Below, piece after piece: positions 37,279-64,000 of a stretch of 64,000 nucleotides of DNA. Origin of the DNA: an uncultured delta proteobacterium. Its GTDB lineage: Bacteria > Myxococcota_A > Polyangia > Polyangiales > Polyangiaceae. The notes beneath the pieces were generated by a model. The model was not told the origin of the DNA. It saw only the letters and a program-made list of their open reading frames with translations, and ran no database searches. Position numbers and translations under genes: made by a program. The stretch is taken from contig CAWJCS010000005.1 of NCBI GenBank assembly GCA_963841435.1, forward strand, positions 1,728,001 through 1,792,000, written 5' to 3'. Position 1 is the first letter of the stretch. The number at the start of each line of letters is the position of its first letter.

Positions 37279-37288
37279 CCTAATCAAG

Positions 37289-39779: not shown

Positions 39780-42128
39780 TCAGGGGCGCGTGCCGCGGGT
39801 CAGGAATTTGGGGCGGACGCGCAGGACGACGGCGGGGAGGAAGGCGACCGTGGCGGCGCTGCTCGTGACCATCGTGAGGGCGACGAGGACGCCGAGCAGG
39901 ACGTGCACTTTGAAGCCGGAAAGGGCAAGGCAGAGGTAGCCGCCGGCGACGGCGCTCGCGACGTAGGCAATCGCCTTTCCCGAGGTGGTGAGCGCCGTGG
40001 CGGTCGCTTCGCGTAGGTCTCCCTTGCGTTGGACCTCCTCGCGCACGCGAAACAAAAAGTAGACCGCGTAGTCGGCGCCGATGCCCACGGCCATGGCCGA
40101 GATGGCCGCCGTGCCCATCGAAAGCAAAATCCCGCTCCAGCCCATCAGACCAAGGTTCACGAGCGCCGCGGTGGCAAGCGGCAGGAGCACGAGGAAGCCG
40201 CCCGTGATCGAGCGCAGGAGCACCGACGTGATCACGACGACGAGCAACGCGATCTGGATGAGGTTGATGGTCTTGCCGCGTACCATCGTCTCGTTGAGCG
40301 CGATGGCGTTCGTGACGCCGCCGCCGACGGTGGCCTTCGCGGGCAGGCCCTTGAAAAGCTCGTCGGCTTTGGCCTGTGTCGCCACCGTCATCGCCTTCAT
40401 CTTCGTGTAGTCGTCGGTCTTAACGTACGCCGTGAGCACCGCGCGCTGAAAGTCGTGGTCGACGAGGCGGCTGAGGTCGTTTTCGTCGCCGGACATGCCG
40501 TAGAGCAGGAGGAACTGGGCCACGGCTTCGGGGCTGTCGGGCAGCGTCGCGGCGTTCGTGTCGTTGTTGATGACGCGGCTCATCTGCTTGAGCACGTCGA
40601 CGATCGACATCACCTTCCCGATCGGCAGCGGTTGATGCTGGATGAAGCTCGAAAGCTCGTCCATCTTGCGCAGGACCACGGGGTCCTTGATCGTGTCGGG
40701 GGCGTTGCCCTCGACGAGCACCTGAATCACGCGCGTGCCCGCCAAGCGCGAGTCGGCGAGTCTAAAGCCGCGCACGGGTGCGTTCGACTCGAAGAACTGC
40801 GCGCCCAGGCTGTTGCCCGCCTGCAGCCGGAAGGCCCCGACGGCCGCGACGGCGATGAGCACGCCGAACACCCAGAGAATCGGCCGCTCCTTGCCCGCCC
40901 GCACCGTCGCCGCGAGCTTTTCGAGGATGGGGTCGAAGTACTCCTCGCGCTTCTCGCGCTCGGTCTGACGCGCCGACGGAGGCGACATCAACATGCGCAC
41001 GGCGGGGATGAAGGTCATCTCCACGACGAGCGCCGCGACGATCCCGAAAGCGGTGCAGAGGCCGAAGTTCTTGATCGACGGCAGCCCGAACGCGGCGAGC
41101 GAGCCGAAGCTGAGCGACGCGATCGTCCCGGCGGCGAGCATCACGGCGCCGACCTTGGTCGTGGCCTCGATCACGGCGAGCCGGTTGTGCTCGACCGGGC
41201 TGAGCCCGGGCTCTGCTTCGCGCACGCGCGCGTATTCCTCGTAGTAGCGTTTGAGGATCTGCACGGAGTGCCCGGCGCCGATCGCGAGCAGGAGGATCGG
41301 CGTCATGATGTTCCACGGATCCATCGGGGCCTGGATGAGCCCCATCAGGCCGAGCGCCCAGACCACGCCCATGAGCGCCGTGACGAGCGGCACGATCATG
41401 CCCTGTAGCGTGCGGAAAGCCCGGTAGTGGAGATACCCGATCATGGCGAGCGCGAGCACGAACAGAAAGGCCACGCGCCGCGTGTAAATCAGCAGCCAAT
41501 AGAGGATGGTCGGCGCTCCTGCGGCCTTGATCTCGAGGCCCGGCTCGCGCTCGGCATTCAGGATCTTCTCGAGCTTGAGATAGAGGCCTTTGGCCCCTCC
41601 CGCCTTCTCGAAGTCGTCGAAGTCGACGAGCACGGCGGTCGCCCTCCCGTCGTCGCTCACGAGCAAGCTCGTGACGACGTTGTTGCGTTTCACCCGCGCA
41701 CGGAACGCGTCCACCTCTTCGGGCGTCTTCGGCACCGCGCTCGCGAGCGGCGTCACGTCGAGCGCGTCCTCGGTGCTGTTCACGTCCTTCACGCGGCTCG
41801 ACATGAGCGAGAGCACGCTGCCGCTCTTGGCGCCCGGAAGCTTCTCGAGCTCGTCGTTGATGCGCTTGACCTTGCCGAGGATCTTCGGCGTGTAGACGGT
41901 GCCGCTCTCGGGGTACACGCCGATGACGGTCATGTACTTTCCGCCGAAGAGCTTCTCGATGCGCTTGCCGACGATCACGAGCGGGTGCCCGGGCGGGATC
42001 TGCGCGTCGATGTCGAGCAGGACCTTGAGGTGCCCGATGAAGAAGCCGAGCACTAGAGTGATGGCGACGACCGCGGCCACGACAGCCTTGGGCGAGCCGA
42101 CGACGAACGTGACGTAGCGGCGCAGCAT
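39780..42128 (-). CDS. MMPL/RND-superfamily lipid transporter
   Basis: 782 aa with duplicated 1+5 TM architecture and two periplasmic domains; AIGAGHSVQ (TM4) and GIGADYAVY (TM10). Confidence 0.92.
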   Translation of the reverse strand: MLRRYVTFVVGSPKAVVAAVVAITLVLGFFIGHLKVLLDIDAQIPPGHPLVIVGKRIEKLFGGKYMTVIGVYPESGTVYTPKILGKVKRINDELEKLPGAKSGSVLSLMSSRVKDVNSTEDALDVTPLASAVPKTPEEVDAFRARVKRNNVVTSLLVSDDGRATAVLVDFDDFEKAGGAKGLYLKLEKILNAEREPGLEIKAAGAPTILYWLLIYTRRVAFLFVLALAMIGYLHYRAFRTLQGMIVPLVTALMGVVWALGLMGLIQAPMDPWNIMTPILLLAIGAGHSVQILKRYYEEYARVREAEPGLSPVEHNRLAVIEATTKVGAVMLAAGTIASLSFGSLAAFGLPSIKNFGLCTAFGIVAALVVEMTFIPAVRMLMSPPSARQTEREKREEYFDPILEKLAATVRAGKERPILWVFGVLIAVAAVGAFRLQAGNSLGAQFFESNAPVRGFRLADSRLAGTRVIQVLVEGNAPDTIKDPVVLRKMDELSSFIQHQPLPIGKVMSIVDVLKQMSRVINNDTNAATLPDSPEAVAQFLLLYGMSGDENDLSRLVDHDFQRAVLTAYVKTDDYTKMKAMTVATQAKADELFKGLPAKATVGGGVTNAIALNETMVRGKTINLIQIALLVVVITSVLLRSITGGFLVLLPLATAALVNLGLMGWSGILLSMGTAAISAMAVGIGADYAVYFLFRVREEVQRKGDLREATATALTTSGKAIAYVASAVAGGYLCLALSGFKVHVLLGVLVALTMVTSSAATVAFLPAVVLRVRPKFLTRGTRP

Positions 42129-42718
42129 GGTGATCCGGGCTCAGGGTCGGGTCGCGGGCGAGCTCGTGCTGCCGAGCGTCCGAGCGAGCAGGGCGCGCAC
42201 CTTTCGCACGTCGAGGCAAGGGCGGCAAGCCATTGGGCCGGCCGACCTTCGGCAAGACTCGCCGCGCTCACGCGGAACGGTGCGCGTTGCCAATGCCCGG
42301 TTGCTGGCTCTCGTATTGCGTCGCGGCAGTTTGGTGCCCGGCGTCATTGGCGTCGCAAATTGCTCCTTGGACGCAAGAGGTTGGACGCACGGGGCGCAAG
42401 TTCCCGCTCTCGCTTCTCGCATCAGCATCCACCTCTTCTTCGCAGGACAGGCGTCCATCGATCGAGGCGATCGCGTCGATGAATCCCGGGCATGAAGTAA
42501 TCCCGGGCAATGACGAACATGGTCGTCGCAAAACCACGAGCTTTTGCAGGAAGCGGTTTGCGCTCCCACCGATTGAGAAGTAAAACGCCTGAACGCTGTC
42601 AGGTGTTGGGAACGACGCTCGCTACGTCCAACGGGTGCGCCTGGAAGCGTCCCGGCTCGGTTACTCCAAAGTGCGGGCTTGCGCGTCGTTCCCCCTCACG
42701 CTTTCACTGGATCTTTAC

Positions 42719-43432
42719 ATGAAGCAAAATCTCCGCCCCTCAAGAATCGCGCTCGCCCTCGTCGCCTCGACCAGCCTGTTTGCCGCCGCATGCAGCGGTG
42801 GTGACGACGACGCTGCCTCCACCCCCAACGCGTGGCAGGGCCACACGTACCTGCTCTCGATTCCCGAAACGTCGTGGATTGAGCCCGATCCGCGGATCGG
42901 CGGCGAAATTGCTCCGTTCGTCCCCGACTTCGTGCTGCGCGTTGACGCCGCGGCTGATCCCACCATGTCCGCCGCGGTCGGCACCTCCAAGGCCGGCGCG
43001 CAGGACACGTGCAACCTCACGTTGACGGTTTCGGGGAGCAGCGCTTACCCGAACGGGACCCTGAGCGCGCAGACGTACCCGATGCACATTCACGACGCCG
43101 ATCACGACGTCACCGTCAACACCACCGTTTACAACCTCCAGTTCAAGAACGTGTTGCCGAACGGGTTGACGACGAGCACCACGGGCGAGTTCTCCGCCAC
43201 GCTCGACGCTCGCGAGATCTACCCGCTCTTCTACAAGCTCATCGGCGCAACGCCGGATGCGGTCTGCACGGCGCTCGGGCAGTACGATGCGAACTGCCAG
43301 GCATGCCCGAACGATGGCGGCGTCTACTGTTTGCCCCTCAAGGCGATCGGCGTCGGTGCGGTCGAATCGAGCGCTGCGTTCACGGACGTTGCAGAAGCCG
43401 ACCTCGACGCGTCTTGCGCCGACACGCAATAG
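42719..43432 (+). CDS. Uncharacterised Cys-containing lipoprotein, copy 1
   Basis: AAAC lipobox; paralog of the next gene. Confidence 0.85.
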   Translation: MKQNLRPSRIALALVASTSLFAAACSGGDDDAASTPNAWQGHTYLLSIPETSWIEPDPRIGGEIAPFVPDFVLRVDAAADPTMSAAVGTSKAGAQDTCNLTLTVSGSSAYPNGTLSAQTYPMHIHDADHDVTVNTTVYNLQFKNVLPNGLTTSTTGEFSATLDAREIYPLFYKLIGATPDAVCTALGQYDANCQACPNDGGVYCLPLKAIGVGAVESSAAFTDVAEADLDASCADTQ

Positions 43433-44200
43433 GCCATCCGCACCGATGGAGACTCCATGAATCGCTACCTTCCGCTCGCTCTCCTGGCATCGACCAGCCA
43501 GTTCGCGGCCGGGTGCAGCAGCGCTGACGACGACGCAACCCCCAACGCGTGGCAGGGCCACACGTACCTGCTCTCGATTCCCGAAACGTCGTGGATTGAG
43601 CCCGATCCGCGGATCGGCGGCGAAATTGGGCTGTACGTGCCGGAGTTCCTCATCAGGGTGGATGCTTCGAGCGATCCAAGCATTTCTGCCACGGTAGGGA
43701 CGTCGTGGGGCGGCGTCCAAGACATGTGCGGTGTCACCCAGAAGGTTTTGGGTAGCAGCGCCTACCCGATGGGCACCTTGAGCGCGCACACCTACCGTGT
43801 GCACATCCGTCAGGAAGACCGGCAAGTGACGGTCAACACCGACGTGTGGAACCTGGAAATGAAGGACGTGTTGCCCAACGAATCGACGCCGAACGCCACG
43901 GGAACGTTTTCCGCGACGCTCGACGCTCGTGAGATCTATCCGCTCTTCTATCAGATCCCGGGTCGGACGCCCGAAACGGTCTGCGCCGCGCTTGGACAAT
44001 GGGGCGTTGCATGTGAGCCGTGCCCGAAGGACAACGAGGTCTTCTGCCTAACGATCGAGGCGGTCGACCTCGGTGCGGTTGAGTCGACAGCATCTCTCTC
44101 AACGGTCGCGCAGGGCGACCTCGACGCGTCTTGCGCCGACACGCAATAGGCCATCCGGACCGATGGAGACTCCATGAATCGCTACCTTCCGCTCGCTCTC
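42821..44200 (+). repeat. 717-bp-period tandem duplication with near-identical blocks: 42821-42911 = 43538-43628 (91 bp identical); 43399-43483 vs 44116-44200 (85 bp, 1 mismatch)
   Basis: Direct comparison; both offsets equal 717. Confidence 0.95.
43457..44149 (+). CDS. Uncharacterised Cys-containing lipoprotein, copy 2 (chimeric signal peptide)
   Basis: AAGC lipobox; first 9 codons identical to the downstream gene, body paralogous to the upstream gene. Confidence 0.85.
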   Translation: MNRYLPLALLASTSQFAAGCSSADDDATPNAWQGHTYLLSIPETSWIEPDPRIGGEIGLYVPEFLIRVDASSDPSISATVGTSWGGVQDMCGVTQKVLGSSAYPMGTLSAHTYRVHIRQEDRQVTVNTDVWNLEMKDVLPNESTPNATGTFSATLDAREIYPLFYQIPGRTPETVCAALGQWGVACEPCPKDNEVFCLTIEAVDLGAVESTASLSTVAQGDLDASCADTQ

Positions 44201-45848
44201 GTCGTCCCGTCCTGTTTCTTGCTCAGCGCTGCCGGTTGCAGCGACGGGGGCACCTCCGATCAAACGGGTGGGACGGGCGCCGGAGCGGTCGGCGGTAGCG
44301 GCGCAGGGATCGGCGGTAGCGCCGGGACGGTCGCCGGGACGGCGGGCACCCCGACGGGCGGCACGGCGGGCGTGGGTGGCGTCGCCGGCTCGCTCGGCGC
44401 GGGCACGGGCGGCACGCTCGCAGGCTCCGCGGGCCTCGCGGGGACGAGCGGCGCAGGCGGGCTCGGCGCTGCGGGTAGCGGCGCCGGCACGGCTGGTGAC
44501 GCCGGCGCGAGCGGGCTCGGTGGTGGGAGCGGTGCGAGCGGCGCCGCCGGCATGGCGGGCGCAGGCGGCACGGGCACTCCCGTGACGTGCACCATCACAC
44601 AGAGCTCCGAGATCAGCACCAAGATCGCGACCGTCGGTATCGTGACCTGGACTTCGGATCTCGCGGGGATGGACAGCGCCGAGATCGAGTTCGGCCTCGA
44701 CACGACCTACGGGATGACCGCCCCGATCCCCCAGGCCGATCTGATGGCGTCGAACCGCACGCTCTTGCTCGGCATGAAGCCGTCGAAGATGTACCACTAT
44801 CGCGTCGTGGCTCACGCTGGCGCAAGCGTGTGCGCGGGCGACGACCAGACCGTCATGACCGGCGCGAAGGCGTCGAACCTGCCGAACATCTCGCTGACTA
44901 CGACGCCCGGTGCTCAGCTCTCGGGCGGCTTTTTGATCACGGGCCAGTACGCGACCTCGGGCGGGTCGAGCCCCGCGTACATCATCGACGCCGATGGCGA
45001 TTTCGTCTGGTGGTACAGCATCAACAGCGACGTGACCGGCGCTCGCATGAGCTACGACGGCAAGTACATGTGGATCAATCGCGGCAACGTCCCCGAAAGC
45101 CAGGGCGCGAGCGTTCACCGCGTCAGCATGGACGGGCTGACGGACGAGAATTTGAGCAGCCAATTCACGGGGCAAAATCACCAGCTCACGGTGCTCCCCG
45201 ACGAGACGATCGCCTTCTACGCGTACAACAGCAACGGTTGCGACGACATCAAGGAGCGCTCGCCCGCAGGGATGGTAAAGACCATCATCAACGCGGGAAC
45301 GGCGCACGGTGCCGGCGGCCCCTGCCACGTGAACACCATTCAGTACTCGGCCGAAGACGATTCCTACGTCTTTTCCGACCTCGACAACGACAACTACACG
45401 AAGGTCACGCGTAGCGGCACCGTGAAGTGGGTGCTCGGCGGCTCGACCAGCACGTTCACGGGCATGGGGGCTTCGTGGAGCCGGCAGCACGGGTGCGACA
45501 TCCTCGGCCTCGATCGCTTGTTGTTTTTCAACAACGGCTCGATGGGCGGCGGTGGCGGGTCGCTCGCCATCGAGGTTCTGCTCGCGGGAGCCGCGGTCGG
45601 CGGCCAGGGCGCCGACACCGCGACGCGCGCTTGGACCTACACCGCCATGCCCTCCATCAACAACGCCATCATGGGCGACGTTCGAGCGTATGCCGAACGG
45701 CAACACCATCGTCGCGTACTCCACGCAGGGCGTCCTGCACGAGGTCGACAAGGACGGCAATCTCCTGCAGGAGATCAGCTGGCCCATCGGCGGCGCTTTC
45801 GGCTACATCGAGAAGCGCGCGAGCCTGTACGGGCCGCCCCCCAAGTAA
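44174..45848 (+). CDS. FN3 plus arylsulfotransferase (ASST)-like beta-propeller lipoprotein, frameshift near 45682
   Basis: Lipobox, Gly linker, LLGMKPSKMYHYRV FN3 strand, AYIIDADGDFVWWY, NH, CHVN, RQH, FNNG; C-terminal RMPNGNTIVAYS...EVDKDG in a shifted frame. Confidence 0.75.
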
Positions 45849-45903
45849 CCCCGTCCTCGTGCCGGCGCGCAGCCGGCACACGCGAATCGGTGTGAGGTAA
45901 GTC

Positions 45904-47088
45904 ATGAAGTCACTCATCGTCCCGGCCGTGCTCATTCTCGCTTCCACCGTGGGGTGCAGCGGCACCAGCGACGACGACGCCGCGAGCGGCGGCACCGCGG
46001 GTACCGGGGCGAGCGGCGGCACCGCGGGCACCGGGGCGAGCGGCGGCACGGGCGGTGCGGGTGCCACGGGTGGCGCGGCCGGCACGGGCGCGGGGACGGG
46101 TGGCAGCGGAGCGGGTAGCGGCGGCGCGACGTGCGGCGGCAGCATCGTGGCAAGCCCCGAAAATGACTACGCTTTCACGAGCACGCTCAGTTTTCCGCCC
46201 ATCGCGGTCAAGCCCGACTCGAACCTGACCTTCGAGTGGGGCGGGACCACGAAAGACTTCTTGAAGCACTCGCTCGACCCGATGAACAACGTCGATAGCG
46301 TCAACCTGATGCTGTGGAAGCTCACCCAGAGCGAGCTCGAGACGAAGCTGAACGACGACGCGCTCGCCCAGCGCGATCTGGCCATCATCGCGACGGTTTA
46401 CACGCAGAAGATGCTCACGTCGTCCGAGCTCTTCGATTTTACGTCGGTCGGGACGCCGCTCACGCCCTGTCAGATCTTGCCGTTCGTGCAGGCTTTGAAT
46501 CCGGACCCGAACGGGCACCCGGAGTGTGCGGACTGGGCGATGAACGTGGGCGACGGCTACGATCCCGCGGCACACATCTACACGGTGATGCTGGCGACGG
46601 GAGAAGAGCTCGGCCAGGGGACGCGCATGATCCAGTCCTTCAAGCTCGATCCTGCCTCCACCAACACCACGGTCACCATCGACTCGACCTCTACGGTGCT
46701 CGACTACAGCGTCGATCTGCACTCCCTGACGCCGACGATGGTGCCCGCCGGCACGCCCGCGCTCAGCATCGATTGGACCGGGCTGACGACGAACGGGCTC
46801 GGCAAGCCGTTCAACAAGCCCATCACGCGTGCTCGCATCGGCCGCTACACGCAGACGCCCGCCGAGATGGAGGCCCAGTTCTTGGACCTCGACATGATCG
46901 CCGATAAGATGTGGTCCGCCGACGTTCCCGGCGGGATGACCATGGATCTGTCCCAGCTCACCGACGACATGGGGCAGCCCTTCCCGGGCATCGACGCTTC
47001 CTACACGTGGATCGTGGCCCTCGACTGCGGCAGCTGCGCAAACCCCGCGCCCTGGTATCTTTCGCTCCTCGAACCGTGCACCCCTTAG
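45904..47088 (+). CDS. Uncharacterised lipoprotein with C-terminal WxVALxCxxCxNPxP motif
   Basis: VGC lipobox, Gly linker; paralog of 57346-58386. Confidence 0.85.
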   Translation: MKSLIVPAVLILASTVGCSGTSDDDAASGGTAGTGASGGTAGTGASGGTGGAGATGGAAGTGAGTGGSGAGSGGATCGGSIVASPENDYAFTSTLSFPPIAVKPDSNLTFEWGGTTKDFLKHSLDPMNNVDSVNLMLWKLTQSELETKLNDDALAQRDLAIIATVYTQKMLTSSELFDFTSVGTPLTPCQILPFVQALNPDPNGHPECADWAMNVGDGYDPAAHIYTVMLATGEELGQGTRMIQSFKLDPASTNTTVTIDSTSTVLDYSVDLHSLTPTMVPAGTPALSIDWTGLTTNGLGKPFNKPITRARIGRYTQTPAEMEAQFLDLDMIADKMWSADVPGGMTMDLSQLTDDMGQPFPGIDASYTWIVALDCGSCANPAPWYLSLLEPCTP

Positions 47089-47137
47089 CGGCGCCCCCCG
47101 TCTCGAACGCCGTGCTTAGCACGGGCGGGGGCAGCGC

Positions 47138-48787: not shown

Positions 48788-48833
48788 ACCTCGGCGCTCG
48801 CGCGCTCCCTGCGCGGCGAGGCGCGTCGGAACC

Positions 48834-49514
48834 TCAGAACAAGCAATCGACCGGTTGCGGGTTTTCGTCCTCGACGTCGGCCGCGAACGAGCCGTCGATG
48901 TCGGGGGCCTCGGTGAAACCGTCGGCCGCGCTGCCGCGCATCGCCATGCCGCGATAGCCGCCGACGCTCATGTGCGCGCGCACGACGACGATCTCGTCGG
49001 CGGCCACCGGGACGGCGCCACCCGTGCGGGTGAAGGTGTTGCCGGGCGCGTCCGCGTCGGAGGTGCCGTTTTCGTCGGTGTGCGAGTGATCGAGCGTGCG
49101 CCGGTAGATGAGGGCGCCCGCTTCGCTCAGGACCTCCCACCAGTTGGCGTATTGACTGCAGTCGATGTCGGCGCTTTCGACGGTCACGGTAAAGACGTAG
49201 CTTTGCTCGGCGCCGCTCGCGGAGACCGCGACGACGTTGGCGTAGGGCGCATCGTCCGTCGCGCCGCCGGCCCCCGCCGCGTCGTCCGGTGCGCCACCCT
49301 CGCCGGCCTGGCCGCCCGACGCCGCCGAGGTGCCGCCGGTCCCTCCGCCCGAGGTCGCGCCTCCGCCCGGGGTCGCACCTCCGCCCGGGGTCGCGCTTCC
49401 GCCCGAGGTCGCGCCTCCGCCCGGGGTCGCACCGTTGCACGGGGTCCCGGAGGGCTCGCTCGTGCAGCCGAATGCGGCCGCGATGCCGAAAGCACAGACG
49501 GCGAAAAGCTTCAT
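48834..49514 (-). CDS. Conserved hypothetical lipoprotein with GGGAT(P/S) 18-bp repeats
   Basis: FGC lipobox; YANWWEV...RRTLDHSH...FTR...VRAHM domain. Confidence 0.7.
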   Translation of the reverse strand: MKLFAVCAFGIAAAFGCTSEPSGTPCNGATPGGGATSGGSATPGGGATPGGGATSGGGTGGTSAASGGQAGEGGAPDDAAGAGGATDDAPYANVVAVSASGAEQSYVFTVTVESADIDCSQYANWWEVLSEAGALIYRRTLDHSHTDENGTSDADAPGNTFTRTGGAVPVAADEIVVVRAHMSVGGYRGMAMRGSAADGFTEAPDIDGSFAADVEDENPQPVDCLF

Positions 49515-52010: not shown

Positions 52011-52022
52011 GATAGAATTGGA

Positions 52023-54435: not shown

Positions 54436-54494
54436 CTCTCTGGGGCGAAGGACGATGAAGACTCGCTGGCCGAACGTTTCCGGCACTCTTTTCG

Positions 54495-55958: not shown

Positions 55959-57349
55959 GGCTCGCTCTTCGGCACTCGGCTCGCGCTCGAGTACAGGGAA
56001 TTCGACTTCGTGAGCGTGTGGTAACCGAACGACCAATCGCTCGGCGCTTCGACTCGCCACAGCGACTCGTCGTCCTCGTTGACGAGCTCGAGGCGACCGG
56101 CAGAGCCCCAGCTCACGAACCAATCGCGATTCGGCAGGCGTGTCGGCTCACCGAACGCGTCGACATGGACGCTCGGGTCAGGCAGTAGCACACGCGTTTC
56201 TGCGACGGTCATCGCCGTGAGGTCGAGCTGGTACTCCACGACGCGCGACTCGTCCGCGTTGGCGTCGTTGTCCATCACGAGCAGGCGATCGCCGTAGGCC
56301 GCGAACTGGTGCTGATGCAGGAAAGGGGTCGAGCCGTCCGCGAAGTCGAGCGTGCCGCCCGTCGCGCCGACCACCCAGTCGCAGCTCCCCGTTTGGCGAT
56401 CGACGCGCGCGATGCTGCTCAGGTTTTCGAGGCTCACGTAGTAAACGTCCTCGTCGGCGGTCTCCGAATAATCGAGCGCGTTCGCAAACGTCCAGACCGC
56501 GCCCGTGCTGTCGCCGACGTCGACCGCAGGATCGAAACAGTCTGCCGTCGTGAAGACCGTCGAATTGTCGCCGCCGGGAGCAATCTCGACGATGCGGTCG
56601 CCCCGCGGATCGCTGCCAGAGGGCTCCTCCATCGCGATCGCGGCGATGGTCCCGTCAGCGCGCTCCACGAAATCTCCCGCGAGGTACGGCACCGAAAACG
56701 ACTCCTTCTCCTCACCGTCCAGCCCCACGCGCACGATCTCGGAGTCGGGCGTCGAGTCCTCACCGAGCAGGCTGGCGTCGTAGAGCACGCTGGTGCCGTC
56801 GACGGAGAGCACGGCTCGGTGGATTTCGAGTCCCCGGTCGTCTTCGTGGTACCAGACGATCTGCCCGTCCGTGTCGATGATCGCGACGGTAGGCGCGCCG
56901 CCCTGAAGCGGCACGACGACGTAGCGCTCGAGCCCGCCGCCCTCGAGCGAGAGCGCGGGCAGCTTCGACGGTAGCGAGCCGGTGCGAAACGTCAGGATTT
57001 CGCTCGCGCCCGCGTCGTCGCCGTCCCAGGTGACGACGCGGTAGTAGTACGTCGTATCGGCCTGCAAACCGAGCAACATGTCGGCGTGGGCGACGGCCGG
57101 GTCGGTCTCCATGGGTGTCGAGTACGCCATGGAGGGTGTGGGCCCGTACTCGACGTAAGCCGTACTAGCTTCCGTCGTGCCAAACGTCACGGTCACGAGC
57201 GTCGCGATGTCAGGGCTCTTTTCGACGGATACGCCCGTCGGACGGCGCGCGGCGAGCTCGTCGCCACACGCGCTCACCGCGAGCGCGGCGCCGCAACACG
57301 AAATGGCCAGCCGCCGGCCGACGCCGCCGAACGGACCAGTCGCACTCAC
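55955..57349 (-). CDS. FN3 plus ASST-like beta-propeller lipoprotein, probably catalytically degenerate
   Basis: VSAC lipobox; LLGLQADTTYYYRV, IIDTDGQIVWY, WTFAN, HQHQF, MDN, RLPN; overlapping start/stop with both neighbours. Confidence 0.75.
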   Translation of the reverse strand: MSATGPFGGVGRRLAISCCGAALAVSACGDELAARRPTGVSVEKSPDIATLVTVTFGTTEASTAYVEYGPTPSMAYSTPMETDPAVAHADMLLGLQADTTYYYRVVTWDGDDAGASEILTFRTGSLPSKLPALSLEGGGLERYVVVPLQGGAPTVAIIDTDGQIVWYHEDDRGLEIHRAVLSVDGTSVLYDASLLGEDSTPDSEIVRVGLDGEEKESFSVPYLAGDFVERADGTIAAIAMEEPSGSDPRGDRIVEIAPGGDNSTVFTTADCFDPAVDVGDSTGAVWTFANALDYSETADEDVYYVSLENLSSIARVDRQTGSCDWVVGATGGTLDFADGSTPFLHQHQFAAYGDRLLVMDNDANADESRVVEYQLDLTAMTVAETRVLLPDPSVHVDAFGEPTRLPNRDWFVSWGSAGRLELVNEDDESLWRVEAPSDWSFGYHTLTKSNSLYSSASRVPKSEP

Positions 57350-58386
57350 GGAGCGCTCGGGTTGAGCTCGGAGAGCACGAGAGGCTGCGGGTTCTGGCAG
57401 TTGTTGCAGCGCAGGGCGACCATCCAACTGCCCGTCCCCTGGCCGTCGAAACCGTCGAACGCGTTGCCGTCGGCATCGCGTGCCGCCTCCAGGTTCATGC
57501 TCTTGGTCGCCGCTGGGACGCTCACCTTCCAGAGCGGGTCAGCATTGATCTCAACGTCGAAGAAGTCGTCCTGGACCTGGGTGGGCGTCATGTTCGGGTA
57601 GAACCCGACCAACAGCTCGTTGATGAGATTGAACGCAGTGGGGTTCCCCAGCGAGTCCACCTTGACGTCGCCCCAGCTCGCGACCCACGGGCCGTTCATG
57701 GGAGCGTCAACGGGCGTTCCGAGCGAAGCCTCGAAATCGAGCAGGCCGCAGCCGGTCTCGACGTCCACCTGATCGACGACCGAGCTGTCCGACGGCTTGA
57801 GGAAGGCCATGGTGCTCGTGCCGATGCCCGGGCTCTTCGTGGTACCGGCCGCGACCAGATAAATCAGATTGCTGTCCGTCGTGAAGTCGGACTCGAGATC
57901 GATTGGCGTGCCACCGAGACTTTTGAAGGCGTCGAGCGAAACGCACGGCGACGACTGATCCGTCTCGTACGTCCACACGGCGTCGAAGTCGCTCTGGCTC
58001 AGCGTACCCTTGGTGAGGACCTGGGCCGCCTCCTCTTCGGTCACGTCCTTGAAGCGAAGCAGCGTGAGGAGCTTGATGCCGCTCACGTCAACCGCGTGGC
58101 ACTGAATGTCGTCCATGATGCTGTCGAGGCAGACTTCGACATTCGTACCCGCAACCGTGGGGTGACTGACGGGTGTCAGCACGCTCTTCACGGTCGTGTA
58201 GTTGTTCGCTTGCGACAGCACGATGGTCGCCTGCGTCGAAGGACCTGGATTGGGTCCACTGTCGTCATCGCCACCACCACAGCCCAGCGCGAGGCAAGCT
58301 GCGTAGGCCGCGGAAACTAAAAGAGAAATGCGCGGGCCCTTCGAAGCGCGCGCGAGGGAATGAACGTGTGACGAACGGCTCGACAT
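57346..58386 (-). CDS. Uncharacterised lipoprotein with C-terminal WxVALxCxxCxNPxP motif
   Basis: LGC lipobox; paralog of 45904-47088. Confidence 0.85.
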   Translation of the reverse strand: MSSRSSHVHSLARASKGPRISLLVSAAYAACLALGCGGGDDDSGPNPGPSTQATIVLSQANNYTTVKSVLTPVSHPTVAGTNVEVCLDSIMDDIQCHAVDVSGIKLLTLLRFKDVTEEEAAQVLTKGTLSQSDFDAVWTYETDQSSPCVSLDAFKSLGGTPIDLESDFTTDSNLIYLVAAGTTKSPGIGTSTMAFLKPSDSSVVDQVDVETGCGLLDFEASLGTPVDAPMNGPWVASWGDVKVDSLGNPTAFNLINELLVGFYPNMTPTQVQDDFFDVEINADPLWKVSVPAATKSMNLEAARDADGNAFDGFDGQGTGSWMVALRCNNCQNPQPLVLSELNPSAP

Positions 58387-58735
58387 GGTCGCGGAAGTAG
58401 AGCCCAAAGCGCGACGTTGCGCCAGCCGATCCGAGCACATTTTCGGCTCGAATCATGCGATCAGCGGCTGGGTGCGCGGCCGGTCGGTACACAAATCGAA
58501 ACAACAATTTGGTCTGAAAAGTGCGCGCAAGACTTTGTCCGGGCATCTCTGGTTACAGTTCGCTCTGTCCCCATCGCATGGTCGTGCTCTTGAACTTTTC
58601 CGTTGGCGTCGCGCTTTCGCGAACGGTTTTGCAGTGAGACTGCCCGAATACTATGATGGAGCACGCACGGCGGCGCGGTCGCGCGCACCCGCGAGGTGAC
58701 GCGCGTGACCCACCGTCCCGCCACGGAGATCCCCA

Positions 58736-59792
58736 TTGAGCCTACCCGAACTCTACGTGTCGCGACCGGGCATCAGCCACCCTGCAGCACGCGTCGACAA
58801 CCAGGAAATTCTGCGGCGGGTGCACGAGCGCTACCGAGGCGACGAGGCGGACTGGCCGACCGTCGAATCCGCCATCACGCACGTCTTTGGGCTGTGCAAC
58901 ACGAAGGTCCGCTACCTCGAGGATGATCCGAATGCGCGCGTCGCCGACTACGCCGTGCAGGCAGCGCAGCGTTGCCTCAAGATCAACGGCGTCACGGCGA
59001 GCGAGGTCGACATCGTGATCAGCGGCGGCATCGCCCGGCAGTACTTCGAGCCCGCCACGGCCATGGAGATCGCCGCGAAGCTCGGCCTGAAGCGCACGCA
59101 CGCGCTCGAACGTCACGGCCGCCTGCGTCGGCCACCTCGAAGCCATCCAGGCGGCCGCCGGCTACTTCGCGATCCATGACGACTACCAGACGGCGCTCGT
59201 CTGCGCGTCCGAGCTCTTCGGTCACTACCTGAGCTACGACATCCAGACGGTCAAGGACCTCTACATGAAGTCCGCGGGCCTCACGGTCGGCAACGCCGCG
59301 GCCTGCGTCCTGCTCCGACGGGTGCCGTGGCCAGGTGGTGGCATTCGCCTGATCAAGATCGACTCGTATACGGCGCCTGATCACTGGCACCTCTGCCAGG
59401 TGCCCATCGATCGCACCTTCGAGTCGTCGTCCGTCGAGATGATGCGGCTGAGCAAGCTCATCCCGCCGTGGCTCAAAGACCGCCTGGAGACGCTCGGGTG
59501 GACCCCGCAAGAGGTCAACCACTACGTCTTCCATCAGCCGAGCGAAATGATGGTGAGAAAGCTATTGGAAGACGTGGGCGCGGATCCCGAACGGGGCGTC
59601 TACACCCACTCGCTCTACGGCAACACGGCGAGCGCCGCCGTGGGCGTCACGTACCACCGGCTGCTGGAATCGCGGCAGGTGAAAGAGGGCGACAAGCTCG
59701 TGCTCGGCAGCGCCGCTGCCGGGTTTTCAATGGTATTTTCGGCTGGCATTTGGACGGGACCGAGCGTCGGTCCAACGGAGAATTCAGCATGA
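58736..59792 (+). CDS. OleA-like thiolase/KAS III condensing enzyme, single-base frameshift at about 59110
   Basis: Removing one A restores RQYFEPATA...DVTAAC (catalytic Cys), AGLTVGNAAA, VFHQPS (His), YGNTASA (Asn). Confidence 0.82.
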
Positions 59793-61513
59793 GCTCGTGC
59801 GCGCTCGTCTCGCCGCCATGGCGGCGCGGGCATCGTTTCACGCTCCTCGGAGCGCTTTCGGTTTTGGGGGGTCTGGTTTTCGTCGCGAACGATGCGCGCG
59901 CGCAAGCCGCGCCGGCGGCCCCTCCCGCGGCGCCCGCTCCAACGACCCCGGCGCCGCCCGTGGCGGCCCCGCCAACTGCGGCGCCCGTTGCGCCGGCGGC
60001 GCCAGTGCCGAGCCCTTCGACGGAACCTTCGGCAGGAGCTCCCGCCGAGGGCACCGAGCCTGCGACGACCGAAGCCGAGCCGCCCCCCGCCGAGGCCGAG
60101 GCTTCGTCGGGGAGTGAAAGTGCGGCGACGGATACGGGCTCGGGCCTCTTCGAGAGCAGCTTGTCGGGAAGTGACGACGCCGGCTCTGTAGCTGGAGGCG
60201 GCGGTGCAACGGGCATCGACCTCGGGGGCTACGTTCGCGGTGACGTGTTCGCAGGGATGGTGCCCGACTCCAAGCGCTACGAGATGAAGGCCGCCTACGG
60301 CGAGCTAGCGCTCAAGGTCACCGCCAAAAAGGAGCACCTCGGGACCGCGTTCGCCGAGGCGCGCTTCATGTACGGGCGCGTCGGCGACGACGTGGGGCCG
60401 ACAATAAACCTGCGCGAAGCGTACGTGAGCACGTATCTCGGCCCGCTCGACCTCCGCCTGGGCCAACAGATCGTCGTGTGGGGTCGCGCCGATGCCTTCA
60501 ACCCGACGAATAATCTGACGCCCTTTGATCTGCGCGTGCGTTCTCCCGCCGAGGACGACCGTCAACAGGGTAACGTTGGCGCTCGCGCCTCACTCAACTT
60601 GAGCCCCATCCGGATCGAGGGCGTGTGGATGCCGCTCTACCGGCCGGCGCAGATCCCGTTCATCGTTCCCTGGTACGCGAGGCTGGTGGACGATACTCCA
60701 GAGCCCGATCTCGCGCACGGTACGCAGGGCGCGCGGGTGCACTTGGAGTTGCCGGCCTTCGAGATGTCTGCGTCGTACGTGTACGGCTACGCGCCGCTTC
60801 CGGGGTTCACGTACCACCACCTGATTCACGCCAGCGACGAGCCCAGCGAAACCGCTGCGAGGCCGTGGCAGCTCGAGATCGGGCGAACGCCGTACCAGCA
60901 TCACGTAGTCGGCTTCGATTTCTCCACGGCCATCGGCGATGTGCTCGGCTTGCGTGGCGAGGCCGCCTACCGCTTCCCCATGCATTTTCGCACCCGGTAC
61001 TGGGAGCCGCGCCCGGACCTCCAATACGTGGTTGGGGTCGATCACAATTTCGGCTCGGTGAGTGTCATTGCGCAGTACATGGGCCGCGTGGCGTTTCATT
61101 GGAGCAAGGTCGAAAAGCCGGAGCTTCCCGCGATTGTTAACGGCGACCTCGATACGTTCCTGACCAACGAGATCCTGCCGACCTTCGCGGCGGCCGACAT
61201 CGCGGCGTACGCTCCCGACGACCTCGCGTTCCGAAACCAGATGCTCTTCGGCCAGCTGCACGAGGTGCAGCACCTTGCCTCGCTGCGCGTCGAGTGGCTC
61301 ACCCTGCACGACACGCTCTCGCTCTCGGCGCTCGGCATGGTGAACTTCACCACGCAGGAGTGGCTCGCGTTTCCGAAGGTGCTCTATCACCTGACCGATG
61401 CCCTGAGCACTTCGGTGGGCGCGGAAATCTACGCTGGCCCCACGGGCACCCTGTTCGGTCTCATCGACGAGGAGCTCAGCGCCGTCTACGGCGAGCTCCG
61501 CGCGAGCTTCTGA
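59789..61513 (+). CDS. Outer-membrane beta-barrel (DUF1302-like) with Pro/Ala-rich N-terminus
   Basis: LREAYV...DLRLGQQIVVWGRADAFNPTNNL motif; terminal ASF; ATGA coupling to the thiolase. Confidence 0.78.
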   Translation: MSSCALVSPPWRRGHRFTLLGALSVLGGLVFVANDARAQAAPAAPPAAPAPTTPAPPVAAPPTAAPVAPAAPVPSPSTEPSAGAPAEGTEPATTEAEPPPAEAEASSGSESAATDTGSGLFESSLSGSDDAGSVAGGGGATGIDLGGYVRGDVFAGMVPDSKRYEMKAAYGELALKVTAKKEHLGTAFAEARFMYGRVGDDVGPTINLREAYVSTYLGPLDLRLGQQIVVWGRADAFNPTNNLTPFDLRVRSPAEDDRQQGNVGARASLNLSPIRIEGVWMPLYRPAQIPFIVPWYARLVDDTPEPDLAHGTQGARVHLELPAFEMSASYVYGYAPLPGFTYHHLIHASDEPSETAARPWQLEIGRTPYQHHVVGFDFSTAIGDVLGLRGEAAYRFPMHFRTRYWEPRPDLQYVVGVDHNFGSVSVIAQYMGRVAFHWSKVEKPELPAIVNGDLDTFLTNEILPTFAAADIAAYAPDDLAFRNQMLFGQLHEVQHLASLRVEWLTLHDTLSLSALGMVNFTTQEWLAFPKVLYHLTDALSTSVGAEIYAGPTGTLFGLIDEELSAVYGELRASF

Positions 61514-61635
61514 CGGAGGTCCGGCACGTCGCCTTTTTGCCTTCGAAAATTTTCGTCGCCGGCGAGGAAGATCCTCGACCGAGCCACCGTCTAATCGTAT
61601 TGGAAATACCCCCGCTAAAGGAGCCCGGACCACCG

Positions 61636-62460
61636 ATGAACCAGCTCAGAATCCCGCGCAGAACGGCAACTTTGGCCCTCGTTGCAGCCGCTTCGTTCGG
61701 CTTGCTCGCCGGGGCACGGGACGCGGAGGCGGGCCCCTCCCCCCGCGAGATCATGGACAAGGTGGCCCTCACCCGGAAGCTCGCCGGGTCGGAAGCCGTC
61801 GTGAAGATGACCATCGTCAACGAGAAGGGCCAGACGCGGGAGCGCAAGATCTCGCTCGCCACCAAGCTCTTCGACGGCGGCAAGACCGAGAAGCGCGTCT
61901 ACCAGTTCCTCGCCCCGGCCGACGTGAAGGGCACCGGCGTGCTCGTCTTCGACTACGACGACAAGTCGGACGACACGTGGATCTTTCTCCCCGCTCTACG
62001 CAAGACGCGCCGCATCGTGAGCTCGCAGCGGTCGCAGGCCTTCATGGGTAGCGAATTTTCCTTCGGCGACCTCGCCGTGCCGGCGCTCGACGACTTCAAC
62101 TACAACCTCTTGAAGGAAGAGGCCGCGGGCGGCGAGCCCTGCTGGGTCATCAACGTCATTCCGAAGAACGACGACGTGAAGAAGAGCGACGGCTACTCCA
62201 AGAAGACCTACTGGGTGAGCAAGGACAAGTTCTCCGTCCGCAAGGGCGTCTACTACGACATGGGCGGCAAGCTCCTGAAGGAGCTTGCGACGAGCGATCT
62301 GAAGCTCCTCGACCCGAAGAACAAGCGCTACCGCCCCATGAAGATGGAAATGACCAACAAGCAGAACGGTCGCCGCTCCGTCTTCCAGTCCGAGAAAATC
62401 AGCTTCGCCCCCGACACGAAGGACGACTACTTCACGACGGCGTTCCTCGAGCGGACGTAG
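61636..62460 (+). CDS. LolA-like outer-membrane lipoprotein-sorting protein
   Basis: FLAPADVKGTGVL, WIFLPALRKTRRI, FMGSEFSFGDL, YYDMGGKLLK; GGAG before ATG 61636. Confidence 0.88.
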   Translation: MNQLRIPRRTATLALVAAASFGLLAGARDAEAGPSPREIMDKVALTRKLAGSEAVVKMTIVNEKGQTRERKISLATKLFDGGKTEKRVYQFLAPADVKGTGVLVFDYDDKSDDTWIFLPALRKTRRIVSSQRSQAFMGSEFSFGDLAVPALDDFNYNLLKEEAAGGEPCWVINVIPKNDDVKKSDGYSKKTYWVSKDKFSVRKGVYYDMGGKLLKELATSDLKLLDPKNKRYRPMKMEMTNKQNGRRSVFQSEKISFAPDTKDDYFTTAFLERT

Positions 62461-63473
62461 CGCGACGCGCTGTCCGGCGACTGCTGCGCGAGCGCGCCGC
62501 GCTCACGCGCCGGATCCGAGCCGGGCTGCACGGCGAAGCGTTCAGCCGTCGAAACGCCCCGCAAATCGAGCTGGTGCGCGACGTACGTGAGCTCGCCGCG
62601 CTCGACCTGCGCGCGCCGCGTGCGGAGCCAAGCGTCGAGCGTGGCGCGGTCAACGCCGGGGTCCGCTTCGAGCGCTTCCTCGATCGTCCTCAGAATGTGG
62701 AAGAGGAAGAACGCTTCATTCTCCGGATAGCGTCCGTCGCTCGGGAAGACGACCCAGTCGGAGCTCCCCGCCGCGAGGACCCGCGCGCCTGCCGCGTGAA
62801 GCTGGGCGAATAGGTGTCGACCGGCGCGGCTCTCGCCCGCCCTGTGGCCGAAGCGCACGCGCTCGTCCATCGTCCGGTGGAACGCCGCCATGAGCGCGTC
62901 GTCGGCCGGGTGATCGGGCTGGAAGATCGACTCGCCGTCGAAGTTGATCGTGAACCAGAAGACGCCTCGCGGCGCGAGCCGTGCAAGCAGCGTCGGCAGC
63001 ACGGCGGGCACGTCGACGAGGTCGAGCACGGCGTTCGCGACGAGCAGATCCACACCGTGTGCGTCCGCTGGCCGCCCGGCGAAATCCTGGAGCTCCGCCT
63101 GCGTGCTCAAGACGTCGATCGTGGTGCCGTCGTCGGCCCGTATCCGCGCGGCTGCGCCTTCCACCTCGACCTTGCGCCTCGTCCCAACGGCCCAGCTCTG
63201 GAGCCAGCGGTGAAGGTCGCCGAGCAGCCGCGCGTCAACGTCGAGAGCGACGTATTCACCCGCGCGGAGCACCCTCCAGTCGACGAGCCTGGTCAGCATC
63301 GTCCCGACGCCCGCGCCGATCTCGAGCACACGCGCCGTCGGTAGCGGTGCGAGCGCGCTCCGCACGGTCTCGAGCACGTGGCGGTTCAGCGCGCGATCGT
63401 CAACGGAGATCTTGGAGAGCAGGTACCGGGTCTCGCCGTAGGTCGCAGGGTCCGAGGCGAAATCCGGCAACAT
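62427..63473 (-). CDS. Class I SAM-dependent methyltransferase; true 3' end probably near 62542 after a homopolymer indel
   Basis: YLLSKISVDDRALN, VLEIGAGVG, ANAVLDL, GSSDWVV, HQLD. One extra T would give QLDFAGRFDG-stop and remove the overlap with the LolA-like gene. Confidence 0.85.
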   Translation of the reverse strand: MLPDFASDPATYGETRYLLSKISVDDRALNRHVLETVRSALAPLPTARVLEIGAGVGTMLTRLVDWRVLRAGEYVALDVDARLLGDLHRWLQSWAVGTRRKVEVEGAAARIRADDGTTIDVLSTQAELQDFAGRPADAHGVDLLVANAVLDLVDVPAVLPTLLARLAPRGVFWFTINFDGESIFQPDHPADDALMAAFHRTMDERVRFGHRAGESRAGRHLFAQLHAAGARVLAAGSSDWVVFPSDGRYPENEAFFLFHILRTIEEALEADPGVDRATLDAWLRTRRAQVERGELTYVAHQLDLRGVSTAERFAVQPGSDPARERGALAQQSPDSASRYVRSRNAVVK

Positions 63474-63523
63474 CGCTTCGTCTCCGCGCCGTTAGGCGCG
63501 CTGGGCTTCGCGCCGCGCGGCGC

Positions 63524-64000
63524 TCAAGCGGACGCCGCCGGTTGCGCGCCGTTCGTCACTTGCGCGGGCGGCTGCCAGGGCGGGAGGAACGTGTCGTAGA
63601 AGAACGCGCAGTCTTTCCGGATCTGGGCTTCGTCGAGGCCGAACTTGGCGAGATCGTACTGGTGCTCGGACTCGTACTTGCGCTGCTTTTCGGCGCGCTT
63701 CTTCACCGTGGCGCGAAGCTCGGGCGTCATCTCGTGGTTCAGGAACGTGCACATCTCTTCCATCACGTTCTCGAAATCCATCATCATCCGATCGTAGCGC
63801 ACGATGAACACGCGCTCGTGATCGATGGCACCGCTCTGCCACTCCTCGTGGAACCGCTCGAGCAGTGAGACGAGGGCGCGGTACATGCGTTCGAGCCAGC
63901 GCTTCCTGATTTCCTCGGGCTGCGACCAGAAGCCGAAGGCCCGGTCGAGCACGCCCGTGACGAGGCTCATGGCGCTCGGCAGGACCGCGATGGGATCGCG
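63524..64000 (-). CDS. PAPS-dependent sulfotransferase, C-terminal part (5' end outside window)
   Basis: In frame from 64000: RDPIAVLPS (3'-phosphate-binding RDP..S), VRYDRM, HQYDLAKFGL tail. Confidence 0.82.
   Translation of the reverse strand, partial: RDPIAVLPSAMSLVTGVLDRAFGFWSQPEEIRKRWLERMYRALVSLLERFHEEWQSGAIDHERVFIVRYDRMMMDFENVMEEMCTFLNHEMTPELRATVKKRAEKQRKYESEHQYDLAKFGLDEAQIRKDCAFFYDTFLPPWQPPAQVTNGAQPAASA

Follow-up and report, generated by a model that had tools for sequence, protein, structure and literature searches.

Which molecule is handled by a 24-kb stretch of DNA from an uncultured delta proteobacterium, in which nearly every gene encodes an envelope transporter, an enzyme of sulfuryl or phosphoryl chemistry, or a lipoprotein? 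The locus occupies positions 39780-64000 of a window of 64,000 nucleotides, i.e., the whole stretch analysed here (G000:C5:1728001-1792000; the assembly, hereafter G000, comprises 7.78 Mb in 6 contigs and is 95 % complete). An earlier note, made from the window alone, had regarded it as a single island that makes, sulfates, exports, and re-imports or scavenges a long-chain or sterol-like lipid. Comparison with other genomes shows that uncultured Polyangia share a conserved gene cluster, of which the locus is a rearranged and enlarged version, and that the 24-kb region is a composite, not a single indivisible island. The most likely function of this cluster (we put the probability at roughly 0.55) is the synthesis of a sulfated long-chain lipid and its transport to the outer membrane.

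The evidence that carries this answer is the recurrence of the genes. Orthologues of the sulfotransferase encoded at the right-hand end of the locus were collected by scanning one genome per species, and their neighbours within 10 kb were counted by tblastn with the G000 proteins (E 1e-8 for the counts over 64 and 29 loci, E 1e-6 for the TatT and DUF1302 loci, and E 1e-5 for seven distant thiolase loci mentioned below). Counts of this kind miss divergent homologues, and related genomes are non-independent samples. The scan yielded 64 loci with sulfotransferases of 64-84 % identity, nearly all labelled as Polyangia, Polyangiaceae, Myxococcales, or a generic bin, with few differing labels; many of the contigs are truncated, and 29 loci span at least 20 kb. 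The recurring core consists of CysD, CysN/C, a DHH-like protein, the sulfotransferase, an OleA-like thiolase, a DUF1302 barrel, a LolA_like protein, lipoproteins of the lipoB/D family, a FadL-like barrel, and an MMPL transporter. Its usual order is CysD-CysNC-DHH-sulfotransferase, with LolA_like-DUF1302-OleA on the opposite strand, followed by lipoD-(ASST)-FadL-MMPL, where ASST denotes a propeller resembling arylsulfate sulfotransferases. In one locus (L048) the core genes are contiguous, without space for additional genes, and envelope genes are wholly missing from only one of the 29 long loci. Dozens of other genomes show this gene set next to the sulfotransferase, so the clustering goes beyond chance, and the possibility raised in the earlier note that the sub-operons never co-occur in related genomes does not hold for the core.

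More distant relatives retain parts of the same arrangement. A genome of another family (G037) carries the cluster compressed to about 13.6 kb. One strand bears its genes for the phosphoesterase, the LolA_like protein, DUF1302, a thiolase that is intact, lipoB, and ASST1; the other bears those for the FadL-like barrel, for MMPL (83 % identical), and for the sulfotransferase (75 % identical). Subsets of these genes are found in G142, G113, G134, and G068, the phosphoesterase being part of the cluster in G037 and G113. Among 151 genomes of the same order (one of which, G123, is flagged as unpublished), the DUF1302 protein is present in six, and the DUF1302 loci carry other island genes too. The OleA-like thiolase was detected in 17 of 301 sampled Myxococcota genomes, and in four of the seven distant loci (G160, G175, G192, and G172) a sulfotransferase lies at most 6 kb from it, directly abutting in two. 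In G160, thiolase, sulfotransferase, APS (adenosine 5′-phosphosulfate) kinase, and an MMPL protein of 958 aa follow each other on one strand. The thiolase-sulfotransferase pair is thus the oldest link, which has repeatedly been joined by MMPL.

Against this common plan, the peculiarities of G000 become apparent. Here the MMPL gene is displaced by 11 kb from the FadL-like gene and now lies opposite a second operon (lipoA1-lipoA2-ASST1-lipoB-phosphoesterase), which is an addition, as is the methyltransferase. The TatT-DctP-DctQ-DctM genes, which form a TPAT (tetratricopeptide repeat (TPR) protein-associated tripartite ATP-independent periplasmic (TRAP) transporter), sit between FadL and lipoC, whereas three other loci (L031-L033) show lipoD-ASST2-FadL-lipoC, with lipoC directly after FadL. 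The single-island view therefore stands for the core that recurs around the 64 sulfotransferase loci and fails for the remainder: TPAT is a separate unit, the methyltransferase is an accessory specific to G000 (0/64 loci), and lipoA (6/64), lipoC (7/64), and the phosphoesterase (8/64) are infrequent companions.

All genes of the locus and their recurrence are compiled in Table 1. Nineteen genes were called in 39780-64000 by open reading frame (ORF) calling combined with a filter on third-position GC (GC3) and by Pfam and NCBIfam scans, and all nineteen fall under envelope transport, sulfuryl/phosphoryl chemistry, or lipoproteins, which confirms the earlier description. The exported nature of the envelope parts can likewise be read from the translations: a lipobox cysteine is present in nine island proteins, an ordinary signal peptide in the FadL-like barrel, the DUF1302 barrel, and the LolA_like protein, and a Tat signal in DctP. 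The minus-strand operon runs, in order of transcription, lipoD-ASST2-FadL-TatT-DctP-DctQ-DctM-lipoC, and the plus-strand operon lipoA1-lipoA2-ASST1-lipoB-phosphoesterase faces MMPL. GC is 0.69 in the window and 0.67 in the island, and both divergent gaps, already singled out as AT-richer, have a GC content (0.634 at 42129-42715 and 0.603 at 58441-58735) below the window median of 0.687 (5th percentile 0.62).

Table 1. Genes of the locus in the order of the window, followed by neighbouring and grouped components, with their occurrence around sulfotransferase orthologues (all 64 loci; the 29 loci spanning at least 20 kb).
Feature	Position	Strand	Match or signal	All loci	Long loci
MMPL/HAE3-type resistance-nodulation-division (RND) inner-membrane transporter, 782 aa	39780..42128	-	PF03176 144.9 bits	25/64	17/29
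lipoA1, lipoprotein	42719..43432	+	lipobox FAAAC; no Pfam match
lipoA2, tandem paralogue of lipoA1, lipoprotein	43457..44149	+
ASST1, ASST-like beta-propeller lipoprotein	44174..45895	+	PF05935 40.9 bits
lipoB, lipoprotein of lipoB/D family, paralogue of lipoD	45904..47088	+	no Pfam match
Metallophosphoesterase lipoprotein	47138..48787	+	PF00149 33.4 bits; lipobox LWAC	8/64	5/29
lipoC, small lipoprotein, final gene of minus-strand operon	48834..49514	-	lipobox AFGC	7/64	5/29
DctM, TRAP large permease	49732..51312	-	PF06808 256 bits; TIGR00786 302.7 bits, over cut-off
DctQ, TRAP small permease	51312..52010	-	PF04290 45.4 bits
DctP, TRAP periplasmic binding protein	52023..53027	-	NF037995 257 bits; PF03480 111 bits; Tat signal
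TatT, TPR lipoprotein, T-component of TPAT	53209..54486	-	PF16811 247.8 bits; lipobox CAGC
FadL-like outer-membrane barrel	54495..55961	-	Toluene_X 24.7 bits (cut-off 29.7); signal peptide	31/64	21/29
ASST2, ASST-like propeller lipoprotein with fibronectin/PAP_N (purple-acid-phosphatase N) domain	55955..57427	-	PF05935 47.3 bits
lipoD, lipoB/D-family lipoprotein, opens lipoD-(ASST)-FadL operon	57346..58440	-	lipobox ALGC	32/64	21/29 (lipoB or lipoD: 22/29)
FabH/OleA-like thiolase, KAS III (3-oxoacyl synthase III) fold, two frames	58736..59792	+		31-32/64	22-23/29
DUF1302-family outer-membrane barrel	59786..61513	+	PF06980 36.2 bits; signal peptide	33/64	19/29
LolA_like / DUF1329-like periplasmic protein	61636..62460	+	PF17131 183.3 bits; PF07044 33.5 bits; signal peptide	38/64	26/29
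S-adenosylmethionine (SAM)-methyltransferase-like protein	62427..63473	-	PF08242, PF13489, both under cut-offs	0/64	0/29
PAPS-dependent sulfotransferase, 3′ part (full gene to window-equivalent 64669)	63524..64000	-
CysN/C				44/64	20/29
DHH-like				38/64	17/29
CysD				26/64	12/29
CysH				7/64	6/29
lipoA				6/64	4/29
ASST-like				21-23/64	15/29
TPAT				2/64	2/29

If a lipid is sulfated by this cluster, the sulfate would come from PAPS (3′-phosphoadenosine 5′-phosphosulfate), and a source for it was indeed found by reading the contig beyond 64000, as the earlier note had proposed. This completed the sulfotransferase (381 aa; PF13469 71.5 bits, PF00685 42.1 bits) and revealed, upstream on the same strand and reaching to window-equivalent 69418, genes for a CysH-like protein (PAPS reductase family), a 320-aa DHH-like protein, a CysN/APS-kinase fusion, and CysD. 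The CysD and CysN/C of the cluster represent an extra, dedicated PAPS supply, since the genome encodes another copy of both elsewhere (C5:519884-522639), with 67 % identity for CysD and 43 % for the CysN/APS-kinase fusion. In the sulfotransferase, GNPRTGTT, which we take to be the PAPS-binding loop motif, is invariant in 24 sequences. The model of the protein (pLDDT (predicted local distance difference test) 83.5) was matched by Foldseek to 2z6v (E 1.8e-9) and 2zq5 (E 4.7e-9), i.e., mycobacterial STF9 and STF1, with TM (template modelling) scores of 0.62-0.66; a literature search on the function of Stf1/Stf9 gave nothing relevant. From these families and their arrangement we infer what the cluster acts on and makes, in which direction transport proceeds, and what each envelope protein contributes. 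In the proposed route, the local CysD and CysN/C would make PAPS, with which the sulfotransferase of Stf1/Stf9 structural type would sulfate the lipid, or a reduced form of it arising from an enzyme encoded elsewhere. To judge by its sequence, the 320-aa protein, whose DxD, D, DHH, and GGGR motifs are invariant in 20 orthologues, is probably an NrnA-like phosphatase that would clear the sulfation by-product PAP (3′-phosphoadenosine 5′-phosphate).

The lipid itself would originate from the thiolase by head-to-head joining of two acyl chains (acyl-CoAs). Phmmer against the PDB placed the thiolase closest to 3fk5 (E 1.5e-22), with 3row, 3s21, 4kti, and the 5vx and 6b2 series down to 3e-20 among the 13 best matches; the exception among these 13 is rank 7 (4wzu, E 1.2e-20), a chain named synthase 3 protein 2, and the remaining chains named synthase 3 or FabH follow at E 2e-19 and at 1e-12 to 1e-16. 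The entries 3fk5, 3row, and their relatives, which bear the PDB name 3-oxoacyl synthase III, are presumably Xanthomonas OleA. E105, C130, H266, and N296 of the G037 thiolase align with E, C, H, and N of 3fk5 and are nearly invariant in 21 sequences; the OleA active site is described as comprising Glu117 (from the partner subunit), Cys143, His, and Asn (PMC4090904). The score against NCBIfam PRK09258 is 144 bits, under the cut-off of 285. The OleA-like label given to the enzyme in the earlier note is thus supported by its nearest solved relatives and by the aligned residues, which place it nearer to OleA than to FabH.

An OleA-type product could also be imagined to be sulfated only in order to be activated: the β-hydroxyl of the reduced product would be sulfated and the sulfate would leave upon decarboxylation, yielding a long-chain olefin by a chemistry of the CurM/Ols type in place of OleC and OleB. 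Activation of a β-hydroxyl by sulfotransferase domains for decarboxylative elimination is established in CurM and Ols (PMC4090904), and the tight pairing of OleA-like enzyme and sulfotransferase as the deepest conserved link, the heavy PAPS supply, and the co-encoded putative PAP-removing enzyme would all fit. So would the lack of oleB, oleC, and oleD in the compact clusters (L048 and L080), whose whole content is explained by other genes and to which that search was confined, the rest of the genome not having been searched. We nevertheless consider this route improbable. The fold of the sulfotransferase is much nearer to mycobacterial Stf1/Stf9 than to the sulfotransferase domains of CurM and Ols (TM 0.34-0.37; 0.34 for CurM 4gbm), the cluster contains neither a thioesterase nor a reductase, and a hydrocarbon would not need the co-conserved MMPL, LolA_like protein, and two outer-membrane barrels.

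It is these envelope proteins that would carry the sulfolipid outward. The MMPL/HAE3 protein would extract it from the inner membrane, whereupon the LolA_like carrier and DUF1302, together with lipoB/D and the FadL-like barrel, would deliver it to or through the outer membrane. MMPL scores 206.7 bits against TIGR00921 (HAE3), under the cut-off of 351.9; it is single-copy in G000, and its G037 orthologue (83 % identical) adjoins the sulfotransferase. DUF1302 (PF06980, cut-off 23.2) and LolA_like (PF07044, 33.5 bits, cut-off 23.1) are encoded by adjacent genes. Proteins of these two kinds and a COG1033 RND form a co-fitness set for which export of an envelope component has been proposed (10.1101/072470), and a DUF1302-DUF1329 complex has been predicted (PMC13499233). 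A BNR (COG4447) propeller was not matched in the island by Pfam scan. The FadL-like assignment is based on a profile of 18 orthologues, which finds the FadL homologue 3dwo with E 3.9e-8, over 76 positions only, and on an NPAGLA motif close to the N-terminus, which we assume to be a hallmark of the FadL family. A candidate that had to be given up is a sterol-like cargo, which the earlier note had entertained: MMPL reaches 37.5 bits against BstA (cut-off 1400) and 82.1 bits against HpnN (cut-off 751.85), so that it is neither of the two, and the Pfam scans of the neighbourhood contain no sterol-synthesis family.

The TPAT genes, in which G000 appears to possess a fatty-acid-type importer inserted behind the FadL-like gene, require separate consideration. 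TatT, DctP, DctQ, and DctM are contiguous on one strand, and DctP, DctQ, and DctM are all over their cut-offs. TatT proteins bind long-chain fatty acids, and a myxobacterial one (from Enhygromyxa salina) binds palmitate (PMC11713862). TPAT is an autonomous, widespread unit: TatT is present in 138 of the 151 same-order genomes, and among 16 TatT loci, each inspected over 10 kb to either side, DctP is adjacent in 15 and all four TPAT genes are present in 8, with no other island gene within that distance at E 1e-6 or better. Together with the rarity of TPAT in the cluster (2/64 loci), these figures would suit an ordinary importer that landed beside the cluster without any functional tie. The chances of this are even, for three genomes have TPAT at the cluster, arranged in two different ways: it follows FadL in G000 and L073, and in L057 it is divergent from CysNC. 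In L073, moreover, the order is lipoD-FadL-TatT-DctPQM with TPAT in the usual place of MMPL, and the L073 TatT is the closest found to that of G000 among the loci searched (52 % identity vs at most 48 % in the order genomes). FadL followed by TatT would also offer a plausible route from outer to inner membrane that could supply the thiolase with acyl chains. A functional addition and a mere neighbour are consequently about equally likely. For the chain of events put forward in the earlier note, this means that the gene set for making, sulfating, and exporting is conserved across Polyangia, whereas re-import is hinted at only by the FadL-TatT adjacency in G000 and L073.

Several observations weigh against a sulfolipid that is made and exported, and some of them would better suit the opposite direction of transport, in which the FadL-like barrel, DUF1302/LolA_like, MMPL, and TPAT import external hydrophobic or sulfated compounds that the cytoplasmic enzymes process, if these are not unrelated neighbours. 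FadL proteins and TatT-TRAP systems are importers (PMC11713862), TPAT lies directly behind FadL in G000 and L073, and mutants of Pseudomonas putida in DUF1302/DUF1329 genes are impaired in growth on fatty esters (10.1101/2020.07.04.188060). Uptake as the purpose of the whole cluster has only a slim chance in our view, given that the OleA-like, sulfotransferase, and PAPS genes are as conserved in it as the envelope genes, that the operon-like row of OleA-like, sulfotransferase, APS kinase, and MMPL genes in G160 comes without FadL or TPAT, that no sulfatase was seen in the cluster by Pfam scans, and that TPAT is missing from 62 of the 64 loci. Further points to be set against the export of a sulfolipid concern single components. 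MMPL was matched near the sulfotransferase in just 25 of the 64 loci (17 at 60 % identity or more, with 72-83 % in those printed), and in 8 of these the match is a paralogue of 27-31 % identity, which is placed between DUF1302 and LolA_like. For the 320-aa protein, no Pfam match exceeds the cut-off (collinear sub-threshold matches are DHHA1, E 0.0018, and DHH, E 0.093), and its profile retrieves, among solved structures, RecJ only (E 0.45). No reductase is encoded in the cluster, so that a hydroxyl acceptor on the OleA product would call for an enzyme from elsewhere, or the acceptor would be another one. All 64 carrier loci are from metagenome-assembled genomes, with no cultured carrier among them.

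The thiolase gene of G000 itself is a further point on this side, as a single additional base within a GAAC run near 59109 splits it into two frames, with the active-site region wholly encoded. In 28 of 30 other loci the gene is uninterrupted (one ORF of about 345 aa), and a 255-base contig from the soil-metagenome run X2 matches 58974-59229 perfectly except that precisely one base is missing at 59109. Three DNA runs cover parts of 58974-59795 at a depth of 2-3, and the X2 evidence on the frameshift is a single contig with a depth of 2.1. The frameshift is probably an assembly error; a strain variant would also fit. In view of the split thiolase and of gene fragments near the cluster, the G000 assembly may carry indel errors, and other split genes in it need caution.

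The ASST-like propellers raise the question of whether sulfation ends in the cytoplasm. Both ASST1 and ASST2 score above the PF05935 cut-off of 24.2, indicating a six-bladed propeller homologous to AssT, and the profile of the family (16 sequences) matches 9kf4 with E 7.7e-25 and E. coli AssT (3elq) with E 3.8e-12. As a side observation, 9kf4 and 9kf6 are named just "Sulfotransferase" (472 aa) and 9kf2 is titled Cpz8 of caprazamycin synthesis, so that 9kf4 may be the ASST-type Cpz4. The catalytic residues of AssT, in E. coli numbering, are His436 with His252, His356, and Asn358, and also Arg374 (PMC13426309). Equivalents of His252, His356, Asn358, and His436 occur in 11 of 11 ASST1-type sequences, the Arg374 equivalent being mostly unconserved; in the ASST2 type, the His252 and His356 columns lack His in 5 of 5 sequences, and the His436 column has it in one (the G000 copy), with the reservation that ASST2 and ASST1 are just 20-24 % identical, which makes the alignment of catalytic residues less certain. 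By these residues, ASST1 is plausibly active and ASST2 probably a non-catalytic propeller. This weakens the reading of the earlier note for the ASST2 of the FadL operon, which is without two of the three mapped histidines.

An active ASST1 would permit a relay across the inner membrane, in which the PAPS-sulfated β-keto or enol lipid of the OleA-like enzyme is exported by MMPL and then serves as sulfate donor for the lipoprotein ASST, with an acceptor in the envelope or outside, where PAPS is absent. The catalytic residues in all 11 ASST1-type lipoproteins, the match to 9kf4, and the presence of ASST-like genes in 15 of the 29 full loci are in keeping with it, and the combination in one locus of a condensing enzyme with both a PAPS sulfotransferase and an ASST recalls the caprazamycin trio (PMC4257720, citing Tang 2013). 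We judge such a relay rather unlikely all the same: an ASST-like gene is missing from roughly half of the full loci, which implies that the core works without one; two histidines are absent from the propeller encoded in the conserved lipoD-FadL operon; the Arg374 equivalent is unconserved in most sequences; and an enol sulfate as donor is conjecture. Furthermore, pairs of ASST and lipoB occur at four other places in G000 in unrelated contexts. In total, G000 holds 14-17 ASST-like genes (tblastn matches), with an ASST + lipoB/D pair at least six times (C2:299.9-302.4k, C3:764.6-767.2k, C6:740.7-743.0k, C5:270.1-274.7k, and window 44174-47088 and 55955-58440). No shared context was found for the four pairs outside the window, and because their neighbourhoods are unrelated, the pair is a module of its own; the propellers are optional in the cluster, and ASST2 was found in only 4 of the 151 same-order genomes. 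A more elaborate version, restricted to some Polyangia, among them perhaps G000, would have the OleA-made β-keto or enol lipid charged by PAPS, flipped by MMPL, and used as donor by ASST with lipoB/D, the spent carrier or its acyl chains returning via FadL and TatT-DctPQM. Although quite unlikely, it would, if true, be the first described route bringing activated sulfate to the bacterial periplasm.

Returning to a sulfated lipid destined for the outer membrane, the closest parallel is the sulfolipid-1 locus of Mycobacterium tuberculosis (Stf0, Pks2, PapA1/2, MmpL8, Sap, and Chp1), in which a PAPS sulfotransferase, a lipid-building enzyme, and an MMPL protein are likewise co-encoded for an outer-membrane sulfolipid (PMC3318749). 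The sulfotransferase described here is also structurally closest to mycobacterial enzymes (Stf1 and Stf9). The present cluster differs in having no polyketide synthase, acyltransferase, or trehalose chemistry, its lipid enzyme being an OleA-like thiolase, and in residing in a diderm host with LolA_like, DUF1302, and FadL-like outer-membrane parts and in-cluster PAPS genes. With the sets of DUF1302, DUF1329, BNR propeller (COG4447), and RND (COG1033) of Shewanella, Kangiella, and Pseudomonas, it shares a barrel, a DUF1329-type protein, MMPL/HAE3, and often a propeller (10.1101/072470), but the propeller, when present, is ASST-like and not BNR, and the set is joined to OleA-like, sulfotransferase, and PAPS genes, which is not reported for the proteobacterial sets. 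The OleABCD pathway of Xanthomonas, Shewanella, and Micrococcus has a thiolase with the same Glu/Cys/His/Asn, to whose structures ours is nearest; here, by contrast, no oleB, oleC, or oleD neighbours exist, and the thiolase is partnered with a sulfotransferase. The two-step sulfation of caprazamycin (Cpz6, a type III polyketide synthase; Cpz8, a PAPS sulfotransferase; Cpz4, an ASST) combines similar activities in one locus (PMC4257720, PMC13426309). It differs from the present case in that our ASST is an exported and optional lipoprotein, that the condensing enzyme is OleA-like, and that the fold of Cpz8 matches poorly (9kf2, E 2.2e-3). Finally, TPAT systems such as Tp0956-0958 of Treponema pallidum and that of the E. 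salina TatT have the same succession of TatT, DctP, DctQ, and DctM, but in G000 it is directly downstream of a FadL-like barrel and inside a lipid-sulfation cluster.

The cluster is thus real, conserved, and undescribed: individual elements resemble known systems, and none of these has the combination. Full-text searches found no description of OleA-like, sulfotransferase, MMPL, LolA-like, and FadL genes together, within a literature from which most subscription journals were outside the scope; the claim of the earlier note that no described system is known with this gene combination agrees with this result. If a sulfolipid is indeed the product, an entire clade of uncultured myxobacteria that abound in soil produces a sulfolipid of the envelope by an undescribed route, in which OleA-type head-to-head condensation, PAPS from dedicated genes, and a sulfotransferase of the Stf type are coupled to DUF1302/DUF1329/RND machinery. 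The cargo of this machinery has never been identified in any organism; the cluster places it beside genes for its probable cargo, which makes the question directly testable. It would also widen the uses of OleA-like enzymes beyond olefins and β-lactones, and couple a TatT-TRAP importer to a FadL-like barrel.

A possible connection to the make-up of the outer membrane was considered as well. LpxC (PF03331) and LptD (PF04453) have no match in G000, with positive controls in E. coli and Caulobacter, and the organism may thus be without lipopolysaccharide (LPS). Keck is said to have reported in 2011 that LPS is absent from Sorangium cellulosum (cited in PMC12971839). A link between the cluster and LPS loss was dropped as evidence, as the association is inconsistent: G037 and G142 are without an LpxC match, whereas G113 and G160 have one.

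Of the lipoproteins, lipoA1 and lipoA2 are a tandem duplication (65 % identical), and in a protein atlas lipoA2 has just unnamed Myxococcota clusters as relatives. The model of lipoD (pLDDT 84.5) consists of two beta-sandwich domains, for which Foldseek returned just generic tandem Ig-like structures (best E 4.5e-4, TMq 0.15) and a wide VIA search a best Z of 6.0; the lipoB/D profile found no better than E 0.72 among PDB sequences, and the atlas gave no usable match for lipoD. Beyond the cluster on the PAPS side, L002:7801-8997 (window-equivalent 69801-70997) contains just fragments of a fatty-acid hydroxylase (113 aa) and of NeuB (135 aa). The genes of L002:8590-14138 (window-equivalent 70590-76138), which adjoin the PAPS genes and comprise the NeuB fragment, a class-III aminotransferase, a CMP-type cytidylyltransferase, and a 372-aa protein, look like a pathway for a nonulosonic-acid sugar. 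On the other side, at the edge of the rearranged cluster and about 1.4 kb left of the MMPL gene, an ORF at window 37232-38404 encodes a Y1 transposase domain of the IS200-like type (IS, insertion sequence; E 1.7e-6).

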